DNA of 64,000 bases from a virus. Below are positions 2,389-44,314 of this stretch, piece after piece. Positions within the stretch are counted from its first letter, which is position 1, and each line of letters opens with the position of its first letter. The notes under the pieces are model-generated. The model was not told where the DNA came from. It saw nothing but the letters and a program-made list of their open reading frames with translations, and searched no databases. The translations under genes were made by a program, and so were the position numbers. The DNA is taken from the IMG/VR virus record IMGVR_UViG_3300022539_000562; one strand, given 5' to 3'.

Positions 2389-2464
2389 TGGAGCCAGCAG
2401 TCGGGTTCGAACCGACGACCTGTTCATTACAAGTGAACTGCTCTGCCAACTGAGCTACACTGGC
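2389..2464 (-). tRNA. trnT: tRNA-Thr(UGU)
   Basis: Cloverleaf; GTTCA-CT TGT AA-TGAAC; encoded CCA. Confidence 0.95.
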
Positions 2465-2539
2465 TGGAACTGGTGATGGGACTTGAACCCACAAAACTGA
2501 CTTGGAAGGACAGCATTTTGCCAATTAAATTACACCAGC
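2465..2539 (-). tRNA. trnG: tRNA-Gly(UCC)
   Basis: Loop CT TCC AA; U73; CCA. Confidence 0.9.
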
Positions 2540-2614
2540 TGGGGTAAGTGGCGAGACTTGAACTCGTATCTCATTGGTTCACAGCCAACACGCATTAACT
2601 TATGCTACACTTAC
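2540..2614 (-). tRNA. trnH: tRNA-His(GUG); base at -1 is C, not G
   Basis: Loop CT GTG AA; acceptor GTAAGTG/CACTTAC; C73; CCA. Confidence 0.9.
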
Positions 2615-2615
2615 G

Positions 2616-2689
2616 TGGCAAATCCACAAGGACTCGAACCTTGAACTTCTGTTTTGGAGACAGATATTTTTCCATTAAACTATGGATTT
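2616..2689 (-). tRNA. trnW: tRNA-Trp(CCA)
   Basis: TCTGT-CT CCA AA-ACAGA; G73; CCA. Confidence 0.93.
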
Positions 2690-2765
2690 TGGTAACAGAG
2701 GAGGGACTTGAACCCCCAACCTTCTGGATGTAAGCCAGACAATCTACCATTGATAATACTCTGTT
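2690..2765 (-). tRNA. trnV: tRNA-Val(UAC)
   Basis: TCTGG-CT TAC AT-CCAGA; CCA. Confidence 0.93.
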
Positions 2766-2839
2766 TGGCTGAGAAGAAAGGATTCGAACCTCTATCAATG
2801 GATTCAAAGTCCACTATCCTACCATTAGACGACTTCTCA
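2766..2839 (-). tRNA. trnQ: tRNA-Gln(UUG)
   Basis: GTGGA-CT TTG AA-TCCAT; U1:A72; G73. Confidence 0.93.
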
Positions 2840-2899
2840 TGGATTTAGTTATTATTTAAACTAAATTTTTTATTAAACCATAAAATATAATTATCAAAT

Positions 2900-2976
2900 T
2901 GGTATTCAGGGTAGGACTCGAACCTACATTAAACAGATTCTAAGTCTGCTGTGTTTGCCAATTACACCACCTGAAC
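2900..2976 (-). tRNA. trnL: tRNA-Leu(UAG), short variable loop
   Basis: GCAGA-CT TAG AA-TCTGT; variable region TTAAT (5 nt); A73. Confidence 0.9.
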
Positions 2977-3054
2977 TGGTGCTTGAAACAGGATTCGAAC
3001 CTGTATAAAATGGATTTTGAATCCACTATGTTTGCCTAATTACATCATTCAAGC
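2977..3054 (-). tRNA. trnL: tRNA-Leu(CAA), short variable loop
   Basis: GTGGA-TT CAA AA-TCCAT; variable region TTTAT. Confidence 0.9.
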
Positions 3055-3131
3055 TGGTGTACAAGGTCAGATTCGAACTGACAAAAGATGGATTTTAAGT
3101 CCATTATGTTTACCAATTACATCACTTGTAC
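3055..3131 (-). tRNA. trnL: tRNA-Leu(UAA), short variable loop
   Basis: ATGGA-CT TAA AA-TCCAT; variable region CTTTT. Confidence 0.9.
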
Positions 3132-3208
3132 TGGTAGCGGGAGTGGGATTCGAACCCACGACCTTCTGGTTATGAGCCAGTTTATCTACCTGACTGATAT
3201 ATCCCGCT
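3132..3208 (-). tRNA. trnM: tRNA-Met(CAU), initiator-like; A1 shared with the CCA of the upstream tRNA-Pro
   Basis: CTGG-CT CAT AA-CCAG; GCGGG/CCCGC acceptor; GAAGGTCGT variable/T region as in fMet; A11:U24. Confidence 0.85.
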
Positions 3209-3284
3209 GGTCAGAGTGAAAAGATTTGAACTTTTGACCTCATGTTCCCAAAACACGCGTTCTACCAGACTGAACTACACTCTG
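3208..3284 (-). tRNA. trnP: tRNA-Pro(UGG)
   Basis: CGTGT-TT TGG GA-ACATG; C1:G72; A73. Confidence 0.93.
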
Positions 3285-3361
3285 TGGTGGAACGAACAGG
3301 ACTCGAACCTACATCTTCCTGATTAAAAGTCAGACGCTTTACCATATTAAGCTATCGTTCC
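3285..3361 (-). tRNA. trnK: tRNA-Lys(UUU)
   Basis: TCTGA-CT TTT AA-TCAGG; CCA. Confidence 0.95.
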
Positions 3362-3436
3362 TAGTTGTATTGATGAGATTTGAACTCATATCTTGATGAT
3401 TAAGAGTCATCTGTTTTACCAATTAAACTACAATAC
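3362..3436 (-). tRNA. trnK: tRNA-Lys(CUU), possibly degenerate (3' CTA instead of CCA; 6-bp acceptor)
   Basis: GATGA-CT CTT AA-TCATC; ends ...CAATACAACTA. Confidence 0.75.
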
Positions 3437-3513
3437 TGGCTGTGCAGGTAGGATTCGAACCTACATCTTTGGGATTAACAGTCCCACATTTTACCAATTA
3501 ATACTACTACACA
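3437..3513 (-). tRNA. trnN: tRNA-Asn(GUU)
   Basis: TGGGA-CT GTT AA-TCCCA; G73. Confidence 0.95.
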
Positions 3514-3631
3514 TGGATTATAAGTCCTCACGCTTATAATACTACAATATAAGTCCCTGTGCTTATCAAAGGCAACCTATATAATTTTATCTCTTATCAA
3601 AATTTATGATAATTTTTTATATTAGATATTT

Positions 3632-3720
3632 TGGCGGAAGAGACAGGATTCGAACCTGTGTGGGTTTTACCCCAATGGATTAGCAGTCCATCTCGATAAA
3701 CCTGACTCTGACACTCTTCC
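3632..3720 (-). tRNA. trnS: tRNA-Ser(GCU)
   Basis: ATGGA-CT GCT AA-TCCAT; long variable arm; G73. Confidence 0.95.
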
Positions 3721-3728
3721 TGGATTAA

Positions 3729-4151
3729 TTATTTCTCCTTCAATCCATATTTTCCATCAAACCATTTCAAATAATCATCAATTCCTTGTTTTCCATATTT
3801 ATAATAAATATAATCATATGCTCTTTGATGTAATAATCCATGTTTTGAATTTGATAATAATATAATTTCATCATTATTTTCTTTTAAATAAATATGATGC
3901 TTACATAATATATTTCTTGCTTTTTCTCTAAATTCAGAATTTTGCCATTGTTTCTTTGTTGCTATCCTTAAATTTTTTTTATGTTCATCAGTTAATTTTC
4001 TACCTGTAAGTGCTTTGCTTATTTTTTTTCTAGTTTTTTCAGAATATTTTTTAGTTTTTAAATTATGTCCATTAATATACTTATTTCCTAATTTTACAAT
4101 TTGTCCACATCCACACTTACAATATTTTATTTTAATTTCACATAATTTCAT
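3729..4151 (-). CDS. Free-standing NUMOD3/HNH-like homing endonuclease inside the tRNA array
   Basis: CKCGCG, NUMOD3 repeats (SEKTRKKISKAL, TDEHKKNL), CKHH..SNSKHGLLH. Confidence 0.75.
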   Translation of the reverse strand: MKLCEIKIKYCKCGCGQIVKLGNKYINGHNLKTKKYSEKTRKKISKALTGRKLTDEHKKNLRIATKKQWQNSEFREKARNILCKHHIYLKENNDEIILLSNSKHGLLHQRAYDYIYYKYGKQGIDDYLKWFDGKYGLKEK

Positions 4152-4184
4152 TTTATTCTCCTAATTGATATAAATATTAAATTC

Positions 4185-4270
4185 TGGTAGACGAGGTAGG
4201 ATTCGAACCTACGAAGCTCTCAGCAATGGTATATAAGACCATCTCCTTTAACCTGCTTGGATACTCGTCC
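4185..4270 (-). tRNA. trnI: tRNA-Ile(UAU) with long, Tyr-type variable arm
   Basis: ATGGT-CT TAT AT-ACCAT; 13-nt variable arm TGCTGAGAGCTTC; 86 nt; CCA. Confidence 0.85.
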
Positions 4271-4359
4271 TGGTAGACAGGATAGGATTTGAACCTATGA
4301 AACTTTAATAGTAATGGCATATCAGACCATTCTCTTTGACCAAACTTGAATACCTGTCC
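4271..4359 (-). tRNA. trnI: tRNA-Ile(GAU) with long, Tyr-type variable arm
   Basis: ATGGT-CT GAT AT-GCCAT; 15-nt variable arm TACTATTAAAGTTTC; 89 nt; CCA. Confidence 0.85.
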
Positions 4360-4431
4360 TGGAGACAGAGAGGGGAGTCGAACCCCTGTGGATAGTTTTG
4401 CAGACTACCTCGATTCCAAATCTACTCTGTC
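4360..4431 (-). tRNA. trnC: tRNA-Cys(GCA)
   Basis: GTAGT-CT GCA AA-ACTAT; U73. Confidence 0.93.
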
Positions 4432-4507
4432 TGGTGGAGAAATTTGGAATTGAACCAAAACCTACAGGTCTTCAACCTATCGTGCAGACCTCTTACACCA
4501 TTTCTCC
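4432..4507 (-). tRNA. trnF: tRNA-Phe(GAA)
   Basis: ATAGG-TT GAA GA-CCTGT; G1 is the last base of the HNH stop codon TAG. Confidence 0.92.
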
Positions 4508-4962
4508 TATCTTATTTGATTATGACATCTAATACATAAAGTTAATAAATTATCTAATTTATTATTTTTCTTATTATCATTAATATGATGAACATGCAAT
4601 TTTTGATTATATTTTTTAATATATTCCTCCTGAGTTATTCCACATTTTTGACAAATATGATTATCTCGTTCCCTAATAAATTCTTTTAACTTATTATTAA
4701 ATTCTGGAGAATAAGGTTCAAATGATTTGCCACCTTGCCAATTAGGATTATTTTTACCTCTCATAATTTTTTTAATTGTTTTTCTATATTTAGGATTTTT
4801 CCAAACTTGTTCCATACTTTTACTAACACTTATGCTTATATTTTTCCTATGTTCTTCAGTAAGTTTTTTACCTTTATGTGCTTTACTTATTTTCTTTTTA
4901 ACTTTTTTAGAAACTATATGTCCTTTAACAAATCTTCCTTTATTATTTCTATCTTTGTTCAT
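4507..4962 (-). CDS. Free-standing NUMOD3/HNH homing endonuclease inside the tRNA array
   Basis: NUMOD3 repeats; NNPNWQGG; RDNHICQKC...LHVHHI...NLLTLCIRCH. Confidence 0.85.
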   Translation of the reverse strand: MNKDRNNKGRFVKGHIVSKKVKKKISKAHKGKKLTEEHRKNISISVSKSMEQVWKNPKYRKTIKKIMRGKNNPNWQGGKSFEPYSPEFNNKLKEFIRERDNHICQKCGITQEEYIKKYNQKLHVHHINDNKKNNKLDNLLTLCIRCHNQIR

Positions 4963-4981
4963 TTTTATCCCCCATATTTTT

Positions 4982-5058
4982 TGGCGACACTAACGGGATT
5001 TGAACCCGTATCTCTTGCGTGACAGGCAAGTGTCATAACCTGATTAGACCATAATGTC
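4982..5058 (-). tRNA. trnD: tRNA-Asp(GUC)
   Basis: CTTGC-CT GTC AC-GCAAG; G73. Confidence 0.95.
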
Positions 5059-5133
5059 TGGTAGAACTAGTGAGAATCGAACTCACATCATATGCTTGAA
5101 AGGCATATATCCTAACCATTAGACCATAGTTCC
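5059..5133 (-). tRNA. trnE: tRNA-Glu(UUC)
   Basis: TATGC-CT TTC AA-GCATA. Confidence 0.93.
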
Positions 5134-5223
5134 TGGCGGAAAGAGTAGGATTCGAACCTACGGAAGTTTTACCTTCAATAGTTTTCAAGACTATCACAAT
5201 AAACCTGACTCTGACATCTTTCC
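5134..5223 (-). tRNA. trnS: tRNA-Ser(UGA)
   Basis: ATAGT-CT TGA AA-ACTAT; long arm; G73. Confidence 0.95.
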
Positions 5224-5309
5224 TGGTGGAGAGAATAGGATTTGAACCTACGAACCCATACGAGAGCAGTTTTACAGACTGCCTGCTTTAACCACTTGCA
5301 TATCTCTCC
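5224..5309 (-). tRNA. trnY: tRNA-Tyr(GUA)
   Basis: GCAGT-CT GTA AA-ACTGC; 14-nt arm TCTCGTATGGGTTC. Confidence 0.95.
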
Positions 5310-5386
5310 TGGTACGCCTGGTAGGACTTGAACCTACATCTTGCGGATTAGAAGTCCACTGTTCTATTCCATTAAACTACAGACGT
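5310..5386 (-). tRNA. trnR: tRNA-Arg(UCU)
   Basis: GTGGA-CT TCT AA-TCCGC. Confidence 0.95.
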
Positions 5387-5462
5387 TGGTGGAGATAGAG
5401 GGACTTGAACCCACAACTTCAGGGTGCAAACCTAATGTTTTTCCAATTAAAACTATATCCCC
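5387..5462 (-). tRNA. trnA: tRNA-Ala(UGC)
   Basis: TTAGG-TT TGC AC-CCTGA; G3:U70. Confidence 0.95.
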
Positions 5463-5541
5463 TGGAGTGCCTGATGAGATTCGAACTCACAATCTATGGG
5501 TTCGTAGCCCATTGTTTTATATCCAATTAAACTACAGACAC
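5463..5541 (-). tRNA. trnR: tRNA-Arg(ACG)
   Basis: ATGGG-CT ACG AA-CCCAT; CCA. Confidence 0.93.
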
Positions 5542-6706: not shown

Positions 6707-8692
6707 TCACTTTAATAATCCCAGAATTGTATCTTTTTCTAAATCTTCTGGTGCAAGAGAAATATCGTAATCTTTTTTATCACTAGTAATTTCTGCACCT
6801 GCCATTTCTAAAATATCATTTAATTTAATAGTATTTCCATAAAAGTTAAATAGATATTTTCTACTATGTTCAGTAAAATTTGCATTATAAGAAGTTATTG
6901 AACATCCTATATGTGTTTCAGCAAAATAAAATCTGTTTTCATTAGGATTTGTAATTATAAGTCCTAATATTTTTTGTTGTTGTTTGATATTACTATGACA
7001 TACTACTGCAACATTATTTGGATTTACCATATAGTTCTTTCCAAAATTAGATATCTTTTCTTCTGCTATAACTATCTTAAATGGTACTTCAATATTTTCA
7101 TCAAAATTATAATAATTTACAAATAGAATTAATGCATCATCTTCTTGTTTTCTAACATAAAATAATTCAGTAGCCCCTTTTTGTGCATCTGTTAAATCTC
7201 CTGAAAACAAAATATCTCCTTCATCTGACCTATAACTAGCATCCCATCCTATTTTTGTGCTTTTGGAAATTACAGATAAATCTAAATCAATTCTATTACC
7301 TTTAACATTTTCCCAATATACCCCAAAGACCATATCTCTGGGAATTGTTACATAAGTACCAGATGGAAAATTACCTGTAAATTGTTTCTCTGTTGCTGGT
7401 AAGGTATATGTTATATTCTCTGGAATATAAATTTTCTTACCTTTAACATTTTTGCTAATATCTTCTACTATTGAATTTAAAACAATATCTAATACTTGTT
7501 TTGCTCCTTCTTTATTATCAAAATTAAAATCAGTTGCATATCCTTTACCATTTCTAATTCTATATAATATGCTATCAACATCTTTTGTTCTATATTTCAA
7601 AGCATATGCTAATCTTATTTTTCTAAAAGTATTAACTTTGTTTAATTCATTTTCTAAAATAAAATCATATACGCCCAACCCTTTTTTCAATTTAGTAGTA
7701 ATGCTATTTAAATAATCTATTGGCATTGGTTTATGATACTTTTTAGCAAGTCTTCCAATTCTATTTACTATTGTTTTTAATTGTCTATTTGTTCTCAATG
7801 CTAACCATAAAGGTTTAAATCTATAAAATATTTCTGCTAATTTTTCAAATCCATATTGTCTTTTATATTGTTCCAATAAATTAACAATATGTATATCTTT
7901 TTTTTCCTTAACTGCTGCTATAAGTCCAGGACTTTTAATTAACAAAGTGTTTCCTGTAATTTTATAAATAATAAATCTTAAAAATTCAACTGGATTTTCA
8001 GGTATTAAGTTTAAATAACTATACATAGTCGCTTTAATTTCTTTATTTCTAATAGTAGCCAAGTCTTGTTCATCTACTCCCACAAACAATGCTATATCTA
8101 TTACATCTTTAATAGTATCTTCTGCAAGAGCAATACCCATATTAAGCAAATTCATTAATTTTTCTTTCAATTCTTTTTTAGTATAACCTTGTATTACTAC
8201 CAATTTAATATTATCTATTTCAAGTCCTGGAATATTCAATTTTTCTTTTGGTATATAAATATAACCACTATCTATTGATTTATCTACATCAAAGTCTTCA
8301 AGTTCTAATATTTTCTTACCAAGATTATCTACGCCCCATTGTGCTCCTTTTTCTACTACATATTCTGCTGGATAATCACTTTCTACACCATAAGTAGTTA
8401 AATAATGAGCCAACTGTTCTACTACTAATTGCTCCATAGGAGTATCCTTAACTTTTAACCAAGACTTATGAAAAGAAGCATTTAATTTTTCAGCAGTCAT
8501 TCCATATATGTCTTGCACCATTTCAATAAGTTCAACATAGTTTGTATAATTACAAGCAATCTCTGGTGCAAAAACAAAACCCATTTTAATAGTATTCGCC
8601 AAAAGGTCTAAATCACTTACTTTATAAGTTCGTGCTTTCAATCTTTTTGATTTTACTGGTAATCCTTTAAATAATCTAATACTTGCTTTCAT
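6707..8692 (-). CDS. 661-aa protein with C-terminal TerD-like domain
   Basis: C-terminal GVYW..IDLDLS...LFSGDLTDAQKGATE resembles TerD; N-terminal NASFHKSW..EQLAHYLTTYG block. Confidence 0.6.
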   Translation of the reverse strand: MKASIRLFKGLPVKSKRLKARTYKVSDLDLLANTIKMGFVFAPEIACNYTNYVELIEMVQDIYGMTAEKLNASFHKSWLKVKDTPMEQLVVEQLAHYLTTYGVESDYPAEYVVEKGAQWGVDNLGKKILELEDFDVDKSIDSGYIYIPKEKLNIPGLEIDNIKLVVIQGYTKKELKEKLMNLLNMGIALAEDTIKDVIDIALFVGVDEQDLATIRNKEIKATMYSYLNLIPENPVEFLRFIIYKITGNTLLIKSPGLIAAVKEKKDIHIVNLLEQYKRQYGFEKLAEIFYRFKPLWLALRTNRQLKTIVNRIGRLAKKYHKPMPIDYLNSITTKLKKGLGVYDFILENELNKVNTFRKIRLAYALKYRTKDVDSILYRIRNGKGYATDFNFDNKEGAKQVLDIVLNSIVEDISKNVKGKKIYIPENITYTLPATEKQFTGNFPSGTYVTIPRDMVFGVYWENVKGNRIDLDLSVISKSTKIGWDASYRSDEGDILFSGDLTDAQKGATELFYVRKQEDDALILFVNYYNFDENIEVPFKIVIAEEKISNFGKNYMVNPNNVAVVCHSNIKQQQKILGLIITNPNENRFYFAETHIGCSITSYNANFTEHSRKYLFNFYGNTIKLNDILEMAGAEITSDKKDYDISLAPEDLEKDTILGLLK

Positions 8693-9418: not shown

Positions 9419-10030
9419 TTAAATATTTTCACTATCACTAAATTTAAAATCATCACATATTTCCAGATTTAACTTAGATTTTGCTATATAACCCTCTTTT
9501 AATTCAAATTTATTTACTATCATTTTGCAATAGTTTATAAATTCTTTATGTGTTCTATTAGATTTAGTTGTATTACATTTGTGACAAATAATCTGAACAT
9601 TATTCATATTTAATATTTTCTCATTATCAATTCTATCAAGTGCTGGTGAATTATCTTGTATACCTTTTCCTCTATTATAATTCATTTTCACATTACAATA
9701 TGTACAATATTTAATATTTTTTGCTAATATTATCAATTCATTTCTAGAAATATTTACTTGATATTTTCTTTTATGTTTACTTATTGTACTGTTAACCCAT
9801 AAATAATAAGAATCAGAACTTCTTCCATCTATCCAATTAGGATTATTTTCACCACATAATACTATACTTAAATTTCTTTTATGCTCTTCAGTTAATTTTC
9901 TACCTTTTAATGTCTTACTTATTTTCTTTTTAGTTTTCTCAGACCGATTTTTATTTTTCCAATATTTTGCACTATTCTCACTTAATTTTTTTTTGTGCTC
10001 TTCTGTTTGTTTATACCCTTTTTTAGCCAT
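9419..10030 (-). CDS. NUMOD3/HNH homing endonuclease
   Basis: KKGYKQTEEH; NNPNWIDG; CTYC..ALDRIDN..NVQIICHKCN. Confidence 0.85.
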   Translation of the reverse strand: MAKKGYKQTEEHKKKLSENSAKYWKNKNRSEKTKKKISKTLKGRKLTEEHKRNLSIVLCGENNPNWIDGRSSDSYYLWVNSTISKHKRKYQVNISRNELIILAKNIKYCTYCNVKMNYNRGKGIQDNSPALDRIDNEKILNMNNVQIICHKCNTTKSNRTHKEFINYCKMIVNKFELKEGYIAKSKLNLEICDDFKFSDSENI

Positions 10031-10190
10031 TTTTCATTTTTTTGTCACAAATTTCCTAAATAATCTTTCTGAAAATTTTAAATATTCACAATTATTTACT
10101 TTATTACATTTAACGCTTTTACACCATCTTCTATTAATCAATATTTTTTCTTTTTCTACCCAACATTTATTTTTCACAATTTATCCTCTA

Positions 10191-10204
10191 TATATATTAT
10201 ACTA
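10191..10204 (-). promoter_or_regulatory. Putative promoter motif TAGTATAATATATA
   Basis: Intergenic variant of a motif repeated at 16625, 38224 and 49358. Confidence 0.5.
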
Positions 10205-10224
10205 CATTTTTATATAAAAATCCA

Positions 10225-10419
10225 CTAAATCATTTTATTTTTTTTTCTTGTATTAAAACCACATTTGAACCTATAAATAAAACCTTGACCATTATAGGTT
10301 CTTTTCATCTTTATTTTCTTACATTTAGGGCATTTATATATTTTCTTTCTTTTTCTCCCTAACATAAGAATTTCTTTTGTATATCCACACTTTAGACACT
10401 TGTATATAAATAATGGCAT
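10225..10419 (-). CDS. FmdB-like zinc-ribbon protein
   Basis: MP.F.YKCLKCG...CPKC. Confidence 0.75.
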   Translation of the reverse strand: MPLFIYKCLKCGYTKEILMLGRKRKKIYKCPKCKKIKMKRTYNGQGFIYRFKCGFNTRKKNKMI

Positions 10420-24034: not shown

Positions 24035-24255
24035 TTAGGAGTAACCATTCTTGGTTTTGCTTTTTCTATTTTTGTTATTTTAATCTCAATAGTATATTCT
24101 TTTATTGGTGGCATTGGTACATAAACATCGTATTCTATATCTTGTTCACAATAAAGTGGACAATTGAATTCATGATTTCCTGCTGTATCTAAATTACAAC
24201 AAGTACACATATCAATAAACTGATATTCTTTTCCATCTGTCGTTGTAATTTTCAT
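24010..24255 (-). CDS. Hypothetical Cys/His-rich small protein
   Basis: CTCC..H..NCP. Confidence 0.5.
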   Translation of the reverse strand: MKITTTDGKEYQFIDMCTCCNLDTAGNHEFNCPLYCEQDIEYDVYVPMPPIKEYTIEIKITKIEKAKPRMVTPKCLKEEKC

Positions 24256-24830
24256 TTTACCTCCTTTTCAATTATATTTTTTTTAATTATTATTTGATAT
24301 TTTTTTTCTAAAATTTCATATTGATTTTTAAAACAAGCTAAAAAAGAATCAATTCCCAATTTAGGTCTTTCTATTTCACTTTCTCCACCATACCATTTAT
24401 AATCATCAAAAATAATTAACCCTCCTTGTTTTAATAAAAACCAAGATAACACAGCATCTGATAAAACATCACAAGCTATATGAGAGCCATCAATATAAAT
24501 AACATCAAAAAATTGTTCCCATCTATTTGTTCTTAAAATATCAATAGAACGACCAATTAATAAATGAACTCTATCTTTCCATAATTTTGTATTCTGAATA
24601 AACTTTTCTTTTAATCTAGACAAATCCATGCCTTTATGCTCTGCTCCACCCTCAAAGGTATCAATTGCAAATACTTGTGCTTTTGAAAAATTCTTTAATA
24701 TCCAACAAGTAGCCATTCCTTCAAAACAACCAATTTCTAAATAATTAAATTCTTTATTTTTATAAATAGGAATTAAAAATCTTTTAAAATTACTTTTTGC
24801 TGTAATTTTAAACCAATTTTGTGTATACAT
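24252..24830 (-). CDS. Class I SAM methyltransferase (Methyltransf_24-like)
   Basis: YLEIGCFEG; AIDTF; DVIYIDGSH; GGLIIFDDY. Confidence 0.9.
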   Translation of the reverse strand: MYTQNWFKITAKSNFKRFLIPIYKNKEFNYLEIGCFEGMATCWILKNFSKAQVFAIDTFEGGAEHKGMDLSRLKEKFIQNTKLWKDRVHLLIGRSIDILRTNRWEQFFDVIYIDGSHIACDVLSDAVLSWFLLKQGGLIIFDDYKWYGGESEIERPKLGIDSFLACFKNQYEILEKKYQIIIKKNIIEKEVK

Positions 24831-24835
24831 AATAA

Positions 24836-25507
24836 TTATTTACCTTTTCTAATTTTCAAAAATAAAGTAATAAATGGAATATCAGCATATGCCTGTCCTA
24901 AATCATTTGTTTTTCTTATTTCTATATTAAGACCAAAACAGAGCTTATCAATTTTTTCTCTATTATAGATTCTCATATAAGAGTTATCCGTTTCTGAATA
25001 TTCCTTACTTTGTTTAGAATTATATTCGGTTGTCAGAAGCAATAAACCATTAGGTTTCAAAACTCTCATCATTTCTGATATAGCTCCAAAATCATTATCA
25101 ATATGTTCAATTGTAGAAATTGACAATACTTTATCAAAACTATTATCACTATATTGGAGATTACAAACATCTGCTATTTCAGCACTAACTTTGCCTTGAG
25201 ATTTTATTTCAACTTGTCTCATCCATTCTTCAGGAGAAGTCAATTTAGATTGTTTATAATATGTTCTTTTTGCCCAAGCCATATTATCAGTTGTTATTAC
25301 TGACTTAACTAATGGTGCTAAAAATATACTAAAATAACTTTGAAGTGCTCCTGTATCTAAAACTACATCCTTTGGTTTAAATTCTCCATATTCAAGAATT
25401 TGTTCAAAATCCCAGCCACGAAAATTAGACAAATAAACCTTATCACCATCAAAAATCTTATCTAAATAATTAATAATTTCATTACTTTTAATTATAGTTT
25501 TACTCAT
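24836..25507 (-). CDS. Class I SAM methyltransferase (Methyltransf_11-like)
   Basis: VLDTGA; ADVCNLQYSDNSFD; STIEHI; RVLKPNG. Confidence 0.88.
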   Translation of the reverse strand: MSKTIIKSNEIINYLDKIFDGDKVYLSNFRGWDFEQILEYGEFKPKDVVLDTGALQSYFSIFLAPLVKSVITTDNMAWAKRTYYKQSKLTSPEEWMRQVEIKSQGKVSAEIADVCNLQYSDNSFDKVLSISTIEHIDNDFGAISEMMRVLKPNGLLLLTTEYNSKQSKEYSETDNSYMRIYNREKIDKLCFGLNIEIRKTNDLGQAYADIPFITLFLKIRKGK

Positions 25508-26142
25508 ACTGGTTGTCTGCCTACATATTTCTTTAAATCTGGACTAGCTAATAAATCTGGAATTGGTTGTCCTGGATAATATCTAGCATATCTTCCTTTT
25601 GCATCTAATGCCCAACCATAATGAAAAATTATAGCATTAGGAACAAGTGTATATTCAGATATAGGACGAGGATTACCAACCTTATAAACAATTTCATGGA
25701 TTACATTTTTCCAATAATAACCCAATCCTAATCTTATAGCTCTGCCTTGAGTATCTGGAAATAATTTGTATTTAAAATGTTTTGTATCTCCAAAAAATTC
25801 TATTCTTGGAAAAACTAAAAATTCATTCTTTTTATTATTCATAAACAATTTTGCTTCTTCAATTCCCTCTTTAAACATACACTCATCAGCATCGAGCATA
25901 AAAAGCCAATCATAACCTTTCTCTTCTGCTTTTTTAACACAATAAGTTCTTGCTTCGCCAAAATTATTATTCCATGGTCTATTAAATACTTCTGCTCCAT
26001 ATCCTTGTGAAATTTCAACTGTTTTATCAGTAGATTCTGCATCAATTACTATAAAATGTTCAAAACAAGGAGCAATAATTGGTAGATGTCGTTTTAACAT
26101 AAATTCCTCATTCTTTGTTATCATTCCAAGTACTATTTTCAT
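25504..26142 (-). CDS. Glycosyltransferase family 2 (GT-A)
   Basis: MITKNEE; DAESTDKT; FGEART; LDADE; IHE; HYG. Confidence 0.9.
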   Translation of the reverse strand: MKIVLGMITKNEEFMLKRHLPIIAPCFEHFIVIDAESTDKTVEISQGYGAEVFNRPWNNNFGEARTYCVKKAEEKGYDWLFMLDADECMFKEGIEEAKLFMNNKKNEFLVFPRIEFFGDTKHFKYKLFPDTQGRAIRLGLGYYWKNVIHEIVYKVGNPRPISEYTLVPNAIIFHYGWALDAKGRYARYYPGQPIPDLLASPDLKKYVGRQPV

Positions 26143-27236
26143 TTAATTGCCTCCAATTTCTTTAAAATATCATCTCCAACTACTTTCATATTTAATTTAT
26201 TTTTAACAAAATCTTGAGCTAATTTACCTTTTTGAATAGTTAATTTTCTGTTAGAATACGCTTCCCACATACTAATTGCTAAATTACTATCATTAGGTTC
26301 TGCCCACAATTGAGAAGAATTATACCACTGAATATGTTCCATTCCAAATACATTAATTAATTTATATTCAAGCAACCAAGAATTTTTATTATTAAGAAAT
26401 TTATGAATACCACCAAAATTAGTAGATATAATAGGAGTAGCAACTGACATAGCTTCCATTTGTGGATAACCCCAACCTTCTCCTCTGTGAGGAGCAACAA
26501 AACAATTACCTGTTTTATGTAATCTCATAATATCATAAGTACTTAATTCTTCAAGAAATAAAAATATTTTAGGATAATGTTTTAAATTTAATTCTTCTTT
26601 CCATTTATAAATATTATCCTTAATTGTTTTTGTTCCATCTTTTAAAAAATTACTTTGATAAACTTTCAATAACAAAGCAACATCATTTTTATTCGCAAAA
26701 GTTTTCCAATAAGTTTTGAGTAGCATTTTAGGATTTTTTCTTTCTGTCCACTCAAATATAGAATAAAAAAGAAAACCTTTAAATCCCTTAATTTTAATAG
26801 GTTTATATTCATTTTTGATTTCAATAGGTTGTTTAATAACTTTAATAGGAACAATAACACCACTATCTTTAAAAGTATTAGCAGAAACATGAGAAGAAGT
26901 CCAAATCTCACTCATCTTGTTCATACAATCTACCCAATATTTATCCACCCCTAATACTTCCCAAAATAACATTCCAATATTATATTTATTTTTTTCTCTT
27001 GCAAAAATTGCATATTCAGGTGTAAACATTATTATTTTAATATCATAATTAAGTTTCTTATTTGCTAATTTTTTTGCTTGTTTTGCACCTTCATCTAAAT
27101 TATCCATTTCTGCACGAATAAGTGCAACTTCTGTTGTTACATTGATACCAGCTTCTAACATAGCTTGAAGTAAACTTCTTGCTGCTCGACCATAACCACT
27201 ATAACTAAGAAACCAAGATGTAAATTTTATATTCAT
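26139..27236 (-). CDS. Glycosyltransferase family 4
   Basis: SGYGRAAR; ERKN; HRGEGWGYPQMEAM. Confidence 0.9.
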   Translation of the reverse strand: MNIKFTSWFLSYSGYGRAARSLLQAMLEAGINVTTEVALIRAEMDNLDEGAKQAKKLANKKLNYDIKIIMFTPEYAIFAREKNKYNIGMLFWEVLGVDKYWVDCMNKMSEIWTSSHVSANTFKDSGVIVPIKVIKQPIEIKNEYKPIKIKGFKGFLFYSIFEWTERKNPKMLLKTYWKTFANKNDVALLLKVYQSNFLKDGTKTIKDNIYKWKEELNLKHYPKIFLFLEELSTYDIMRLHKTGNCFVAPHRGEGWGYPQMEAMSVATPIISTNFGGIHKFLNNKNSWLLEYKLINVFGMEHIQWYNSSQLWAEPNDSNLAISMWEAYSNRKLTIQKGKLAQDFVKNKLNMKVVGDDILKKLEAIK

Positions 27237-28489
27237 ACTTTTTCTACCTCTAACAAATCATTGATTGTATTGTAAGTAATCTGTTTAATATTATTGTTAG
27301 CTAAATTTATTTTTGTATGTTTAAATTCTTTTTTTATTTTTCCAAAAAATCCTTTCATATAATTTTTCCACACATATTCCATATCCCATTTTTTAGCAGT
27401 TTTTAAACACCCCTCTTTGTAATAATCAGGATTTCTTTTTAAATTTAAATAAACAATTTCCATTTTTCTAATTATATCATCAATGTCTGGTTTTTTTCTC
27501 CAACTTCCATAATATGTCATATGTATATCTTTTGTTTTTACTAACTCACCATTTATACCCGGTTCTACAATATCAGGCATTGAACTAAAATTAGTAGCAA
27601 TAACAGGAGTACCTGCTGATATACTTTCTATAAGAGGAACTCCAAATCCTTCTCCACTTGAACAATTCATTAAACAATCTATTACATTATAAATTTTATT
27701 TACTTCTACTTGGGATAAACCAATAAGACATTGCCATTTATCTATTACTGTTACATACTCATCTAATTTAAGAGTTTTTACATAATCTCTAATAGGAATA
27801 CAAGGCATTCCAAGACGAATATCATTTGTGTGTATAAATAATCTAACATTAGGATATTTTTTAACAAATTGTTTAAAAGCAAGTAACTGACTTCCAAATT
27901 CTTTTCTATCTTCATAATCTAAATTTGCTGCTACTATTCCAAATACAAAATTTCTTTTATTAAAACCTAAAGTTGTTTTTTTATTTTCTATATTAATAGG
28001 TTTAAAAATAGTACTATCAACACCAAAAGGCAAATAAGTTGCATTAATTCCTACTTTCTTAAGTTCTTTAATAGCAAATTTACTATAAGATACAGGTTTC
28101 CAACAACCTCGTAAATTATGATAGACAAATCTACTTACAGGTTGATGGTCTACTGGAAAAATTGCTATCCATTTATTTGGAAATCTTTCTCCATAATTTC
28201 TAAGAACAAAAACATCACAATGAGTAATAATAATATCACAATTAAATCTTTTAAAATAATAATCAATTATATCTTGACAATGATTCTGATATCCTGTAGG
28301 CAAAACTACAATAGGATAAAATTTATTTCTATATTTAAGAGAATAAGTAAGTGACGCTTCATTCAAACCATAATTAGAAGCCCAAATTACTTCATGATTA
28401 TTTTGTAATAATTTTACTGCCAATAATGTTCCTTGAACAGAATATCCAGTATGACAAAAAGGTGCTGTAGTTTGAAGTAATATTTTCAT
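27233..28489 (-). CDS. Glycosyltransferase family 4
   Basis: SSGEGFGVPLIESISAGTPVI. Confidence 0.9.
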   Translation of the reverse strand: MKILLQTTAPFCHTGYSVQGTLLAVKLLQNNHEVIWASNYGLNEASLTYSLKYRNKFYPIVVLPTGYQNHCQDIIDYYFKRFNCDIIITHCDVFVLRNYGERFPNKWIAIFPVDHQPVSRFVYHNLRGCWKPVSYSKFAIKELKKVGINATYLPFGVDSTIFKPINIENKKTTLGFNKRNFVFGIVAANLDYEDRKEFGSQLLAFKQFVKKYPNVRLFIHTNDIRLGMPCIPIRDYVKTLKLDEYVTVIDKWQCLIGLSQVEVNKIYNVIDCLMNCSSGEGFGVPLIESISAGTPVIATNFSSMPDIVEPGINGELVKTKDIHMTYYGSWRKKPDIDDIIRKMEIVYLNLKRNPDYYKEGCLKTAKKWDMEYVWKNYMKGFFGKIKKEFKHTKINLANNNIKQITYNTINDLLEVEKV

Positions 28490-28749
28490 TATTCCCCTTC
28501 TTTTAATACATTTATACTTTTTTTTATTTTAGATAATTGTTTAAAAAATACAGTTCCTGAAACTTTAGCAAAAAGTGTAAAATCTCTTCCTCTTCCTACA
28601 TTTAATCCAGCTTTATAATGACTACCTCTTTGTCTGATAAGAATTTCTCCACCATTTACAAATTGTCCACTAGAATGTTTTATTCCTAAACGCTTTGAAC
28701 TGCTTTCTCTTCCATTGCGTGATGTACTTTTGCCTCTTGTTTTTGCCAT
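28489..28749 (-). CDS. rpmA: 50S ribosomal protein bL27
   Basis: RNGRES..KRLGIK..GQFV..GEILIRQRG....G.NVGRGRDFTLFA...G.V.F. Confidence 0.95.
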   Translation of the reverse strand: MAKTRGKSTSRNGRESSSKRLGIKHSSGQFVNGGEILIRQRGSHYKAGLNVGRGRDFTLFAKVSGTVFFKQLSKIKKSINVLKEGE

Positions 28750-28877
28750 TTATTTTTCCTTTATAAATTTTGCATAAAAATAATCTTCTACAAACATATA
28801 TAATAATACTGAAATTGTTATTGTAAGCCATCCAAATAAAATACCAGCAAACATCCACCAAAATTCATTCCAATTCA

Positions 28878-29435
28878 TTATTTTACTTCCTTTCTTAATT
28901 TTAATATTACAAATGGTTTTCTTACACTAGTATTAAATCGTTCTGCACTTTCAAGTGCTAATTTTATTCTATCTTCAGATTTTAAAGAAGCATTCTTTGT
29001 AGAATAAAGACTACCCAAAGCAATATCTGCTCCACAACCAACACTAATAAAGTTATCAACCATTTCACCAACTTGATAATCACTATCAATAATAAATAAT
29101 CTACCTTTAAAACCAACCAAAAATGTTCCACCTTTTTCTGCTTTATTCTTTTCTTGTGCAAAACCACCTTCTTTTAAACATTTTCTTACTTTATTTATAA
29201 ATGTAGTCACCATGTAATTGTATAAATCTGTATCACCATAAAACTTAGGTGGTGTAAAACCATATCTTAAAAGTTGTCCCATTCTAAAACTGCCAGTAAA
29301 TCCCATAATATAACCTTCATTTATAAATATTTTTTCATCTGCCCTAACAAATAAACTATATCCACTAATTCCTGCACTATCACCACCCATATAAATATCA
29401 CCATTCTTATCTAATAATCCCACTATACAAGTCAT
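28878..29435 (-). CDS. HslV/proteasome-like Ntn hydrolase
   Basis: MTCIVG..GGDSAG; KIF; SVGCG; Thr2 nucleophile. Confidence 0.8.
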   Translation of the reverse strand: MTCIVGLLDKNGDIYMGGDSAGISGYSLFVRADEKIFINEGYIMGFTGSFRMGQLLRYGFTPPKFYGDTDLYNYMVTTFINKVRKCLKEGGFAQEKNKAEKGGTFLVGFKGRLFIIDSDYQVGEMVDNFISVGCGADIALGSLYSTKNASLKSEDRIKLALESAERFNTSVRKPFVILKLRKEVK

Positions 29436-29744
29436 TTACTCCTCCTCTATAATAATTAAAAAATTAATAGGATAATTCTTAAAGGTAATTCTCATTACAG
29501 GTATCTTTTCTGTATCAATAGCATGTTTAACTAAATTTTTAAGGTCTTCTAATTTAATACTAATACTTTTCTTACTAGTAAATTTATCCTGTATGAGTAA
29601 TTTATTAGTTCTTACATCTTCTTTGTATCCAGAAAAAGCACCACTACCTGCTTGTTTTTTGCCTTTGTATTTTTTAGCAGTTTTATTTTCTTGGTCTTTA
29701 TAATCTTTAGTCATCATCCAACGAGGATATTTCATTTTTTTCAT
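29436..29744 (-). CDS. Hjc-like PD-(D/E)XK nuclease
   Basis: GSGA..KEDV..LIQDKFTSKKSISIK. Confidence 0.6.
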   Translation of the reverse strand: MKKMKYPRWMMTKDYKDQENKTAKKYKGKKQAGSGAFSGYKEDVRTNKLLIQDKFTSKKSISIKLEDLKNLVKHAIDTEKIPVMRITFKNYPINFLIIIEEE

Positions 29745-30682
29745 ATTATAACTCCTCTTTTTAATTCACAATGATATATCATTTTTGAATCCATACTAAA
29801 AATCATAATTTTAAATGGAACATCCCAATAATTTTTACTCAATATTTCTAATATATATTTCATTTTATTATCCTCATTTGAACCAGAATAATAATACTTT
29901 TTTACTTCAAAATCTATATATATTATATTCCCATCATCAACCATTCCTATTTTATTTATTAATTTCATATTTAAAGAAAGGAAAGTTAAAAAATTTGCTA
30001 TTTCCTTTCTTCTTTTTTTCACTACTTTATATACCATAAATTCGCTATTAATAGTATGAGTATATACTGATTGTTTTTTCATTCTATTCATATTCTCTTA
30101 AAAGCATCCAATTATTATCATAAATTTTAATATTAAGAGGAATTTCCTTATATTTATGTTGCAATATTTGTGCTACTTTTTTTATTCTATTCCCATCATA
30201 AAGAATAAATTTATCTATCATAAAATGTATATATGTATTATTACCACTAGTAGTCATTTTTGTTTCCATAATTAATTTATCATTAGAAACAATTAAATGT
30301 AAAAAATTTTTTATTTCGTTTCTTTTTTCTTTTATTTTTTTCATTATCTTCTATCAAAACTGCTAAAACTTTCATATTGATTACCTTTTGTATTCTGAAT
30401 GTGAATTATAAAAAAAATATTATTATACTTTTCATAAAGTATATTTCCTACTTGTTTTATTTTATTACTCAATATGCTATTGTAATTATTCATACTAAAT
30501 ACAATTAAAATATATTTCTCTCTATTGTGCATCAATATATTCTTTATTGATTTCATATTGCGAGAAATCAAAACTAAAAAATTTGCTATTTCTTCTTTGT
30601 TTTCTTTTGTTATTTTGTATATTAAAAATCCATCACTAACACTATCATTATATACGAATTGTTTTTTCACTTTATTCATCAA
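29741..30682 (-). other. Three tandem paralogous small CDSs (29741-30091, 30084-30344, 30344-30682)
   Basis: Shared K..EI.NFL..I..N.K.I motif and C-terminal IL..KY...F.I. Confidence 0.65.
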
Positions 30683-30765
30683 CTTTCATTATTGAAATAG
30701 TAAAATAATTTGTACTATTAAACAAATAAAAATAAGTATTCCTATTTTAACTAAATCTATTTCCA

Positions 30766-31755
30766 TTATATATCCTTAATATATTTAATCCCTTTTTTAA
30801 TTTCTTCATTTAATGTATTAATTAAATCTTTATTTTTCATAATTTCTTTTCTTAATTTTTTAATACCATGATATTTTGTTCCCTTGTATTCATACCATCC
30901 AGCTGATTTGCTTTTAATATATCCTAAATCTAAAGCAACTTGTATATACTGTGGAGCATTATCTATACTACCATCATAATAAAATGGAAAACTACAAGTT
31001 TGCTGTGGAGGAGCAACTTTACTTTTAGTTATATCACAAACTACATAATGTCCTATTCTTTTTTTCTTGTATTCTATCCATTGACCTCTTTTAACTTTTA
31101 TCATTATTGTACTAATAAAATCTAATCCTCTACCTCCTGGTCTTGTATATGGACTGCCATATAATATTCCTATTTTTTCTCTTACTTGATTAATCATAAA
31201 AATAATAGTATTTTTATTAACAGCAATAAGTTTTCTAAGTGCTTTATTCATCATCCTTGCAGCAACACCCATTTGTTGGTCTTCCATTTTGCTTTCTAAT
31301 TCTACAAGAGGTACTAAACTTGCTATACTATCTAATACAACTATTGAAAACATATCTGGTACTACAAGACTTTCCATTATATCTAATGCTTCTTCTCCAT
31401 AACTTGGTTCACTAATATATAATTCTTTATTATTTACTCCTAATTTTGTAGCCCAATTTTTATCATAAGTTTTTTCAGTATCTATAAAAGCACATTTTTC
31501 TCCTCTTTTTTGAGCAGCAGCAATAGTTTTAAGAGAAAGTAGTGTTTTTCCACTATTAAAAGTTCCATATACTTGAATAAGTCTTCCTCTTGGTATTCCA
31601 CCACCTAATATATAATCAAGTATAGGAATACCAGTACTAACTACCTCATACTTCATATCACTTGCTCTCATAAGTACTTTTTTTCCAAACTTTTTATTCA
31701 GTACTGTAATTAATTCATCTATATCCATAAGCAATAATTTACCAATATCTGACAT
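30766..31755 (-). CDS. recA: RecA recombinase
   Basis: STG..LD..LGGGIPRG; GTFNSGKT; VLDSIASL; INQVREKIG; PGGRGL. Confidence 0.95.
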   Translation of the reverse strand: MSDIGKLLLMDIDELITVLNKKFGKKVLMRASDMKYEVVSTGIPILDYILGGGIPRGRLIQVYGTFNSGKTLLSLKTIAAAQKRGEKCAFIDTEKTYDKNWATKLGVNNKELYISEPSYGEEALDIMESLVVPDMFSIVVLDSIASLVPLVELESKMEDQQMGVAARMMNKALRKLIAVNKNTIIFMINQVREKIGILYGSPYTRPGGRGLDFISTIMIKVKRGQWIEYKKKRIGHYVVCDITKSKVAPPQQTCSFPFYYDGSIDNAPQYIQVALDLGYIKSKSAGWYEYKGTKYHGIKKLRKEIMKNKDLINTLNEEIKKGIKYIKDI

Positions 31756-34700
31756 TATTTTAACTCCTTTAGTTTCTTTATCTTATTCCCTGCTTTTGAA
31801 TTAAAAACTAATCCACCCCTATCATTTTTCTCAAGATGCATAGCATATATTTCTCCTACTTCTAAATATTCTTTATACTTTTTAGTAGCATCAGACCAAA
31901 AAATAACATTCTTGGCTATTTCATTTTCATCTGAAAGTTTAAGAAAAGTCATTATTTTGCCTTTTTTAGTTATCCAAAAATGATAATTCTCTATAACAGT
32001 AGCAAAAGAATAACTACTTCTTATAAATACTTTTTTTCTATCTGATAAAGTTTTAAGATTATATTTTTTAATTATTGTTCTGTATTTATCAAAAAGATTT
32101 TCAAAAAGTCTACAATTTTTAATCTTTTTATCTAATACAAACATTTCAGAAGCATATACTCTATCTTTTTCTTTTAAAACTTTTCCTATTATACTTACAG
32201 GTTTATTCATACCTTCTTCTAACATCCAAACCTTATATTTTTCAAATACTTCTGGTTTCATATTGACAGAAATAACTCCTTGTCCATTAGATATACTTAG
32301 ATTACAATACATCCTTTCTGATTCTTTTGCACTAAATAATGTACTACCTTTTACATTTTTTACTGTTTCTTTATATTTTTTTGAATTAATACTCACAATA
32401 ATACCTGATATAACAACTAAATCTCTTGCACATTCTATTACTTTTACATAATTTTTTATATAATATTGTTTATAAAAATTACTTAAATTACTAATAAAAT
32501 TTTGCTCAATCTTTCTCCATTTAGAAAAATTAATTAACTTTTTGATTACATCAGTAGAATATTCTTCTTTCATTGGTTTTGTATTTGCAACTTCATCTAT
32601 AATTGTTATTTTCTTTTTTAATAAATCATCTAAATTATTTAAAGTTTCTATTTCATTTGGAAACCAACATTTAAAAACACCTGCTTTAATTAAATTTTTA
32701 ATTCTTGCTGAATTTACTGTTCTTCGTTCAATTTTATCTAAAAAATCTATCCAATCTTTAAAAGTTTGTTTTTCAATAATGTGATTACTTGCTCTATTGC
32801 CCATCCCCATGATTTGATTAAAACCTTGTCTAATAGCATTTTTCTCGATAGAATATTCAATTGTAGATTTATTTATATCAGGTGGTAAAATTTCTATACC
32901 ATATCTATTGCACTCTTGTAACAAGTTTTGTTCATTCTTTTTATCTACTATTAAATTGCTAATTAAAAATTCTAATGGATAATAAACTTTTAAATACATA
33001 TTAATATATCCTAACAATGAATAAGCAACAGCATGTGCTTTATTAAAAGTCCAACTTCCATAATGCATATATCCTCTGTACATATTGCTTGCAGTTATTC
33101 TTGGAATACCCTTCTTAACAGCATTTTCAATAAATTTATCTTGCTTATCCAAAAAATATTCTGCACCTAAAGTTTTACTTATTGCCTGTCTAATTTGCGA
33201 TATTTCTATCCAATTAAAATTGCCTATATTAGATAAAATTTCCATTAGTTGTTCTTGAAAAATTACTTCACCATAAGTAGATTTTAAAATATGTTCTATA
33301 TCAGGATGTTCATATTTAATTTTTTTTCTACCTTTTTGTACATCTATATATCTTTTAGTAGCACCAGAACCAAGAGTTCCAGGTCTAGAAATAGCATTAG
33401 CATGTGCTAAATGTTCAAATTTAGTGATTTCCATATTATTACATAATTTACGAAAAGCATATGTATCAAATTGAAAAATACCAATAGTATTTGCTTTATC
33501 AAATTCTTTTATTATTTTTTTATCATCTAACTTTAAATTATATACATCTATATCCTTATTGTGTCTTTTCTTAATTAAATCTAAAGTTTTTTGTATAATA
33601 GTAAGATTAGATAATCCTAATACATCGAGTTTAAGAAGATTTAATTCTCCTTCTTTACTATCATTCTTATCAAATGGTATTGCTGTTCCTAAATTAGTTC
33701 TTATTAAACCACAATATTCAGTTAAATCTTGTAGCGAAATTATTAAACCAGCAGCATGAACACCATGATGTCGTACTCGTCCTTCTAATTTTTGTGCTAC
33801 TTTTATTACTTGTGGATATTTATTGGCAAATATTTTTGCTTCTTTAAATGTTTTAATACTATCTTCTATTGTAAATGTCTGATGTGTTTTTGCGAAAGAC
33901 CCTTGTAAAATATATTTAGTGATTTTATTTGCTTCTTTAAGCGGAACATCAAATACTCTACACACATCTTTTAATACAGCTCTACCTTTTAAAAGAGAAT
34001 GCGTAATCATATGTGCTACATGATTTTTGCCATATTTTCTTTTTAAATATTCTTTAATTTCATGTCTTCGGTTATCTTGAAAATCTATGTCAATATCAGG
34101 CAAATCATCTCTACTTGGTGAAATAAATCTAAAAAACAATAAATTATGTTTTATTGGGTCAACATTTGTTATATTTAAGCAATAAGCAAGTAATGAACTT
34201 GCAACAGAACCACGTGCTGTACCTACCATAATTATTTGTGATTTTGCCCACTTAATTAAATCCCAGACAATTAAAAAATATTTTTCAAACTGTAAACTTG
34301 TTATTAAATCATATTCTTCTTTAAGTCGTTTTAAATATTCCTTTTTTTGATGCAAATTTTTGTTTTTTAAACCCTGAAAAGATAAATACCAAAGCCATTC
34401 TTTATAATTATTAAATTTTTTTGGTAAAAATAAACTAGGAAGCATTTTATGTATGCTAGGTATTTTAAAATCTATATTGATTTTATTGGCAATTTTTAAA
34501 GTATTATTCATTGCTTCTTTAATAATTTTATCACTTATTTTAGAATGATATTTTTTACAAGTATCAATCATTTCATCTGCTGTTTTTAAATATATTCCTT
34601 CCAAATCAAAAATTGTTCTATTTTTATCATAGTATTTTTCTTTATATCCTATACAATGCATAACATCTCTTACCCATGAATCATTTTGATTAAGATAATG

Positions 34701-44207: not shown

Positions 44208-44219
44208 TTTTAATTTTGA

Positions 44220-44314
44220 TGGAGCAGGAGGGATTTGAACCTTCGTCCAAAATAAACAAATAAACAAATATTATGTCAGTTTATTCATTTATCCTGTCGA
44301 AACCCATCTGCCCC
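44220..44314 (-). ncRNA. Minimal tmRNA-like RNA (tRNA-like domain only)
   Basis: GGGGCAG-AT-GGGTTTCGA-[18-bp helix, 13-nt loop]-GAC-GAAGG-TTCAAAT-CCCTC-CTGCTCC-A; G3:U70. Confidence 0.8.

Follow-up and report, generated by a model that had tools for sequence, protein, structure and literature searches.

A gene for ribosomal protein bL27 in a phage genome

The stretch of DNA analysed in this work (hereafter, the window) consists of 64,000 nucleotides of the IMG/VR virus record IMGVR_UViG_3300022539_000562 and corresponds to bases 26459–90458 of this 115,399-bp record, which is 99% complete according to CheckV. It harbors, on the minus strand at positions 28489..28749, a phage rpmA, that is, an 86-codon open reading frame (ORF) coding for an 86-aa ribosomal protein bL27 whose N-terminal start is MAKTRGKSTSRNGRES. 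A preliminary description of the locus had recognised in it a full-length bL27 core with an unusual N-terminus, and both points were borne out by the analyses reported here.

As regards the core, the protein matches the Pfam profile Ribosomal_L27 (PF01016) with 94.6 bits against a cut-off of 20.5, covering profile positions 1–78 out of 79, and aligns without gaps to residues 1–81 of T. thermophilus bL27 (E value 5e-22); its score with the NCBIfam model TIGR00062 is 88.2 bits, narrowly missing the equivalog cut-off of 90.35. An AlphaFold2 model based on 18 homologues gave a predicted local distance difference test score of 85–96 over residues 21–86 (the beta core) and below 50 over residues 6–19, the first ~20 residues being modelled as a disordered basic tail. 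When the model was probed with Foldseek, the top matches were all bL27 chains; the crystal structure of free T. thermophilus L27 (1v8q) fits it with a template modelling score of 0.94 and a root-mean-square deviation of 1.5 Å. According to this model, the phage protein is predicted to have the bL27 fold, with an intact beta-sandwich core.

The TAA stop codon of a 42-aa ORF located upstream directly abuts the bL27 ATG; thus, a Firmicutes-type leader, or N-terminal pre-extension, is impossible, in agreement with the preliminary description. At the other end, the bL27 stop codon and the ATG of a glycosyltransferase (GT) gene overlap in the sequence TAATG, so that the translational coupling to the GT operon, claimed in the same description, is real. 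The rplU-rpmA(-obg) context, typical of the closest bacterial copies (see below), was not found for the phage gene, whose neighbours are an HslV-like gene and a GT4 gene, and no bL21 was detected across the 115-kb phage genome.

The bL27 gene lies in a genuine tailed-phage genome and is flanked on either side by viral genes. The region that precedes the window encodes a portal, a head-maturation protease, the major head protein, tail proteins and a tape measure; the genes of the window include those for RecA, a DnaE-type polymerase, a primase, a C5 DNA methylase and a glycosyl/methyltransferase cluster, nearly all of them on one strand, and bL27 is encoded on the same strand as RecA, DnaE, the primase and the C5 methylase. 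The GC content of the window is 24–29%, except for a tRNA array near 2–6 kb (32–35%), and neither GC nor skew shows a break at the bL27 gene. No cultured relative was found, the capsid and DnaE proteins being at most 34% identical to those of any GenBank phage; the public runs carrying this phage DNA are marine-sediment and cold-seep metagenomes, with no RNA run listed among them. The preliminary description had allowed for a contig that is host-derived or chimeric at this point; the CheckV completeness, the structural genes and the recurrence of the same junctions in other contigs (see below) show, instead, that the gene is phage-encoded.

A rewritten N-terminal tip

The N-terminal tail of bL27 reaches the peptidyl-transferase centre, where it lies against the CCA ends of the A- and P-site tRNAs. 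In the window, codons 2–10 of the gene (28720..28746, minus strand) encode the tip AKTRGKSTS, replacing the canonical AHKKxxGS(S/T). A sister phage copy, carried by an independent ENA contig from another sample (L008), has the tip ATTRAKGRT and shares with the window the derived residues T4, R5 and K7. Hence, the near-invariant mature start A-(H/S/T)-K-K is found in neither copy, the window having A-K-T-R and the sister phage A-T-T-R; all three HKK positions are altered, and several codons differ by two or three bases.

We checked how unusual these residues are in two surveys. Among 192 homologues, K3 was absent, T4 was present in three and R5 in one, the sole R5 and one of the T4 belonging to the sister phage. 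In 143 further bL27 from genomes and metagenomes, K3, R5 and K7 never occurred, T4 occurred once, and the AHKK start was found in 135. This second set includes 80 JGI metagenome loci, kept from a search of JGI metagenome contigs for more phage-type copies; the search pattern was too generic, and all 80 loci turned out to be ordinary bL27 at no more than 62% identity, with no phage-type copy among them. In the two surveys together, sister phage aside, K3 and R5 are present in 0/334 other bL27.

Moreover, the number of non-synonymous substitutions per site (dN) between the phage genes and the closest bacterial ones is 0.43–0.90 over codons 2–10 and 0.12–0.17 over the core (Fisher p 1e-4 to 2e-3). 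In bacterium–bacterium pairs, the tip excess is not significant and HKK is never altered.

Selection within the phage lineage was estimated from the two full sequences, those of the window and of L008. The ratio of non-synonymous to synonymous rates (omega) over the whole gene is 0.28 (p 1e-3); it falls to 0.20 in the core, with 12.5 non-synonymous to 14.5 synonymous changes (binomial p 2e-4), and is about 0.9 in the tip, with five non-synonymous to two synonymous changes. These substitution counts indicate that the fold is kept by purifying selection and that the tip is near-neutral. The change of the tip would thus reflect either relaxed constraint or diversifying selection, two sequences being compatible with either. 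Each copy has three basic residues in the tip, namely K3, R5 and K7 in the window and R5, K7 and R9 in L008.

Odd tips were also encountered in cellular-looking bL27 from metagenome contigs (L139, L167, L156, L162 and L165): in the MAGAA(S/A)ARNGRDS and MATSASARNGRDS tips, HKK is missing and the length is reduced by two to three residues, and another tip reads AETKGGSHAV.

Bacterial origin of the gene

When a database of 5.8 billion proteins was searched for homologues of the phage bL27, the nearest sequences after the sister phage copy were four bL27 (P0003–P0006) with 67–71% identity. All four begin MAHKK and are encoded by contigs of 29–30% GC, in ordinary bacterial neighbourhoods harboring PBP2, RodA, a radical-SAM pair, RNase G, (bL21), bL27, Obg, NadD, RsfS and LeuRS. 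In a maximum-likelihood tree of 82 bL27, the two phage copies group together, with a Shimodaira–Hasegawa-like approximate likelihood ratio test (SH-aLRT) value of 96, and the pair is nested in a clade with P0003–P0006 (SH-aLRT 96). Over codons 11–72, the DNA identity between phage and bacterial genes is 81–83%, the lowest value being 78% (L008 vs. the donor-type contig L002), and the number of synonymous substitutions per site (dS) in the core is 0.47–0.66, equal to the distance among those bacteria.

These data show that a bacterial rpmA was captured by a lineage of marine-sediment or cold-seep tailed phages, and that the donor was an uncultured low-GC sediment bacterium, which is probably also the host. 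The phylogeny that the preliminary description had proposed in order to find the host was thus informative in part: it returned a well-supported bacterial donor clade, but bL27 alone does not resolve the phyla, and among named relatives of the Obg from a donor-type contig the identity does not exceed 49% (best 48–49%). The possibility that the phage tip is simply the normal one of the host lineage, also raised in that description, is contradicted by the closest bacterial copies. The MAHKK start of the donor lineage and the tips AKTRGK and ATTRAK of the phages indicate, in turn, that the tip was rewritten after capture. A frameshift origin of the new tip was considered and rejected, since in a by-eye comparison with donor-type DNA the register shift was not convincing.

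The cold-seep run X2 also contains a contig starting MAHKKATGK, a near base-for-base match to the bacterial locus L102. On L002, the bL21 ORF upstream of bL27 (7724..7897) has only 57 codons vs. 104 in L102, which may represent a frameshift or an assembly error.

The gene belongs to an accessory cassette

The bL27 gene is part of a cassette of ~390 bp, whose upstream half is the 42-aa ORF (28750..28878, minus strand), recovered from the ORF list, hydrophobic, with one predicted membrane helix and no Pfam match. The cassette is located between two conserved flanks, both on the minus strand: on the left, a gene for an HslV-like phage protein of the Ntn-hydrolase type (28878..29435), 91–93% identical in L008 and in a Logan contig (L093), and, on the right, the GT4 glycosyltransferase gene (27233..28489; PF00534), whose product is 94–97% identical in the same contigs.

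L008 shows the same gene order (HslV-like protein, 42-aa ORF, bL27, GT); its HslV-like protein and GT are 91% and 97% identical to those of the window, its bL27 only 77%. In L093, where three flanking proteins are 98%, 93% and 94% identical to those of the window, the stop codon of the HslV-like gene overlaps the GT start, and both the 42-aa ORF and bL27 are absent. A three-way alignment placed at the edges of this indel an imperfect direct repeat of the ribosome-binding-site/start region, ATTAAA..AAGG..AATAATGAA. Furthermore, one contig of run X2 spans the bL27–GT junction with ~92% identity, and in a second one the start of bL27 is fused to the HslV-like gene, 131 nt with the 42-aa ORF being skipped; cold-seep contigs carry parts of the bL27 gene at about 90% identity. 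In a relative at a greater distance, whose HslV-like protein is 67% identical, bL27 is not nearby. Single-protein scans of IMG/VR with bL27, GT and the HslV-like protein did not retrieve any close relative.

Since the cassette is absent from L093 and present elsewhere, bL27 is accessory in these phages, and we infer that the cassette is an accessory fitness factor rather than an essential gene. Between the window and L008, its dS is 0.40–0.47, three to four times that of the flanks (0.09–0.14). Such a difference suggests that the cassette has been exchanged by recombination between diverged phages and has a history of its own, distinct from that of its surroundings (mosaic recombination); the persistence and recombination of the gene within the phage gene pool thus go back further than the separation of these phages.

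As for transcription, a scan for promoters and terminators detected no terminator on the minus strand within 24000–31900, and promoter-like sites were less numerous than in shuffled sequence; the result is consistent with one long transcript, not proof of it.

The 185-aa HslV-like protein has 2513 homologues, mostly from phage-like contigs and some from Rhizobiales genomes; JGI annotates some of them as HslV peptidase subunit. No Pfam profile matches the protein at default thresholds, and it represents a widespread phage protein family.

A tag-less mini-tmRNA and other translation genes

The same genome carries a gene for a tag-less mini-transfer-messenger RNA (mini-tmRNA) of 98 nt, which consists of the tRNA-like domain only (44217..44314, minus strand). 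It matches the Rfam family RF00023 with 68.9 bits, the gathering score being 47; 11 nt replace 286 positions of the RF00023 model, a G3:U70 pair is present, and the 3′ end is ...CUCCAUCA instead of CCA-3′. ARAGORN makes no call at this site.

An array of 26 tRNA genes (2389..5541, minus strand), identified with ARAGORN and through Rfam tRNA matches, is a heavy investment of the phage in translation. SmpB, bL21, bS21, an RF-1/ArfB domain and peptidyl-tRNA hydrolase were not found in the phage, in a search that took in part of the ribosomal-protein families.

bL27 in other phages

The preliminary description had noted that the ribosomal proteins reported from phages are mostly bS21 and bL12. In the portion of Mizuno et al. 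2019 considered here, the viral ribosomal proteins are bS21, bL12, bL9, bL31, bL33 and others, loosely bound and exchangeable ones being stressed, and bL27 is not named among the 14 proteins (PMC6375957). This picture had to be amended, because bL27 has already been reported in a phage: the jumbo cyanophage PhiMa05, to whose type MaAM05 belongs, carries six ribosomal proteins, bL27 included (PMC13157829).

Among GenBank phage records, 15 out of 50,697 contain bL27. Of these, Microcystis phage MaAM05 alone is both annotated and credible; its bL27 comes after bS1 and bL21 and starts MASKKGVGSTKNGRDS, with a canonical tip. Besides this one, two records were opened, the remaining ones being mostly short and unannotated. 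The first, “Acinetobacter phage MD-2021a” (CAKLQH020000002.1/CAKLQF020000003.1, L100), was discarded as a bacterial chromosome contig with ispB, rplU, rpmA, lolA and serS; the second is unannotated and marked UNVERIFIED_ORG. Several UNVERIFIED_ORG “phage” records with bL27 look like MD-2021a, and such records inflate the counts of phage ribosomal proteins.

The frequency of bL27 in IMG/VR, for which the preliminary description had suggested a search, was obtained from a profile scan of 2.9 million contigs, which retrieved three further viral bL27 contigs belonging to two lineages. The first (L103, IMG/VR 3300046820_001270, 334 kb) harbors at 10001..10258 on the plus strand a solitary canonical bL27, MAHKKGEGSVKNGRDS, among phage-type hypothetical genes. 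The other two, related to each other (L104, at 9914..10150 on the plus strand, and L105; IMG/VR 3300009034, 241 and 173 kb), code for a divergent 78-aa bL27-like protein with the canonical MAHKKAGGS tip and a degenerate NGRDS motif (RAHQGCHTRGKRRG), that is, the reverse of the pattern of the window. In all these phages, then, the tip is canonical. According to these data, phage bL27 is rare but already known, and the rewritten tip is specific to the phage lineage of the window.

As regards tmRNA in the other bL27 phages, none was found in MaAM05, and in the two IMG/VR jumbo phages the only matches, of 77 nt, fell below the threshold and are probably tRNA.

Possible role of the phage protein

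The bL27 tip contacts only the universal CCA ends of tRNAs. Hence, the idea advanced in the preliminary description that the phage bL27 tunes the ribosome to the odd tRNAs of the phage appears weaker than the link with ribosome rescue, put forward in the same place. The latter gains strength from the presence of a real mini-tmRNA and from the behaviour of E. coli mutants. In E. coli, changing the HKK of bL27 to alanine, or truncating the tip, leaves normal translation nearly unaffected (PMC13450312, Sci Adv 2026), and in the HKK mutants the half-maximal effective concentration (EC50) of tmRNA-SmpB for trans-translation falls more than 4-fold. In the AaaaAGG mutant and in the bL27 deletion, this EC50 is less than 25% of that of the wild type, and once bL27 is missing, elongation is slowed by tmRNA-SmpB; the tip is described in that study as a gatekeeper and as near-invariant (PMC13450312).

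The explanation we tentatively prefer, at somewhat less than an even chance, is that the phage bL27 enters the host 50S subunit and alters the access of rescue factors to the A site, not catalysis. In this scenario, the protein would be built into host 50S subunits during infection, replacing the host bL27; we infer this incorporation because the conserved core has no other known use. The resulting ribosomes would carry an altered tail beside the peptidyl-transferase centre, and the altered tip would change the access of the host tmRNA-SmpB, and perhaps of the phage mini-tmRNA, catalysis probably remaining the same, since the E. coli HKK mutants spare peptide-bond formation but open the A site to tmRNA-SmpB. 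The gene itself belongs to a dispensable cassette within a long, translationally coupled operon, on the strand of the replication genes.

Several observations weigh against this explanation. The near-identical phage L093 does without the bL27 gene, and the linkage of the cassette with a mini-tmRNA is known for one genome only; since the other bL27 phages that were checked lack tmRNA and the phage of the window lacks SmpB, there is no general pairing of bL27 with tmRNA. The near-neutral rate of the tip would fit a plain loss of constraint as well as adaptation, and a tip that keeps three basic residues may act much like HKK. In addition, the ribosomal proteins usually carried by viruses are loosely bound, exchangeable ones, and bL27 is not counted as one of them (PMC6375957); it may thus enter only newly made subunits.

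A broader version of the rescue hypothesis is that the tip-rewritten bL27 and the mini-tmRNA represent two halves of one phage strategy, which we regard as improbable. The altered bL27 would open the gate next to the catalytic centre on ribosomes made or remodelled during infection; the alanine-accepting tRNA-like-domain RNA of the phage would then use the host SmpB to gain entry, and would either hijack or prevent ribosome rescue and the tagging of phage proteins.

The first alternative, rather unlikely but the one that holds up best, is that of a plain supply, in which the phage bL27 tops up or replaces the host bL27 and thereby sustains ribosome assembly in the long infection of a slow-growing sediment host, with a neutral tip that keeps its basic charge. 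This is the usual reading of virus-encoded ribosomal proteins (PMC13157829, PMC6375957), and it agrees with the purifying selection on the core, with the three basic residues among the first nine in both phage variants, and with the canonical tips of the other phage bL27, which show that supply alone can maintain such a gene. On the other hand, HKK is near-invariant in bacteria, according both to our tip surveys and to PMC13450312; a tip of equal importance would be expected to be conserved, as it is in PhiMa05, L103 and L104, whereas here all three HKK positions have changed, several codons at two or three bases.

According to a second alternative, the gene would be a decaying passenger, a recently captured host gene without any phage role, whose tip is already drifting, and L093 would exemplify the ongoing loss of the cassette. 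The presence of the gene in some but not all near-identical phages, the omega of about 0.9 in the tip and the TIGR00062 score slightly under the equivalog cut-off could all be read in this way; however, the core omega is still 0.20 (p 2e-4) after a dS of about 0.47 between the phage copies, both full copies (window and L008) have retained an undisrupted reading frame together with the coupled start and stop, and the cassette dS, three to four times that of the flanks, speaks for a long persistence in the phage gene pool. We therefore hold such a decay to be unlikely.

A role off the ribosome, with the protein acting as a decoy or binder of a host factor (a modifying enzyme, a protease or a defence sensor) or as a small-RNA chaperone, is more doubtful still and looks very improbable. 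It would account for a ribosome-relevant tip that is free to vary in a fold that is kept, but the conserved surface is the rRNA-binding core, and no partner gene is evident, the flanks encoding a membrane peptide, the HslV-like protein and glycosyltransferases; we know of no bL27 working off the ribosome. Finally, that host DNA was mis-joined into the viral contig or mis-binned is scarcely credible: most “phage” records with bL27 in GenBank appear to be host contamination (e.g., MD-2021a), but the same junctions recur in independent assemblies from other samples, phage genes lie on both flanks with no compositional break, and the tip is unlike that of every cellular copy sampled.

Significance and comparison with known systems

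bL27 is the protein nearest to the catalytic centre of the ribosome, and the AHKK sequence of its tip hardly varies among bacteria; the role of this tip was unclear until a 2026 study linked it to the exclusion of tmRNA-SmpB from translating ribosomes (PMC13450312). The phage gene described here offers a natural variant, with a core kept by selection and a replaced tip, in a virus that also has a stripped-down tmRNA, and it could be used to probe the role of the tip, since a swap of nine residues makes the question directly testable. Moreover, it extends the list of virus-encoded ribosomal proteins from the peripheral, exchangeable ones to the functional core, and the presence or absence of the gene among near-identical phages represents a natural isogenic comparison, should the host be cultured. 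If bL27 and the mini-tmRNA were indeed parts of one strategy, this would be the first virus found to edit the neighbourhood of the catalytic centre in order to control trans-translation.

Natural variation at the N-terminus of bL27 is also found in the Pro-bL27 of Firmicutes and relatives. In that case, the leader is a removable extension cleaved by Prp, which exposes a canonical ASKK/AHKK tip, whereas the phage copy has no extension and it is the mature tip itself that is altered.

With the viral ribosomal proteins of Mizuno et al. 2019, the bL27 of the window shares the derivation from a host gene, the purifying selection in the virus and the presumed replacement of the host copy; unlike the surface-exposed, exchangeable proteins stressed there, it reaches the catalytic centre. 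PhiMa05/MaAM05 is the closest precedent in that a full-length bL27 of bacterial descent resides in a bona fide phage genome, but its gene belongs to a bS1–bL21–bL27 block in a 274-kb genome, whereas that of the window is solitary, in a 115-kb phage, within a dispensable cassette and with a rewritten tip.

Mycobacteriophage DS6A has a tmRNA reduced to the tRNA-like domain (tmRNA Website; PMC4131195), and a similar tRNA-like-domain molecule strongly inhibits tmRNA, perhaps through titration of SmpB (PMC4131195). The 98-nt mini-tmRNA of the window is of the same type and represents the candidate partner of the phage bL27 in the rescue hypothesis; it is encoded by a separate gene, 15.5 kb from bL27, and the co-occurrence of such an RNA with a phage bL27 has not been reported.

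Lastly, the E. coli bL27 mutants (AaaaAGG, truncations of 2–6 residues, deletion) have lost HKK, and the phage bL27 is likewise devoid of it, with its core intact. These mutants provide the sole experimental readout of HKK loss, namely, more trans-translation and interference of tmRNA-SmpB with elongation. They drop charge or residues, whereas in the phage protein the tip is of unchanged length and still contains three basic residues, their register being shifted; furthermore, Gly8, the reported hinge, is a Ser in the copy of the window.

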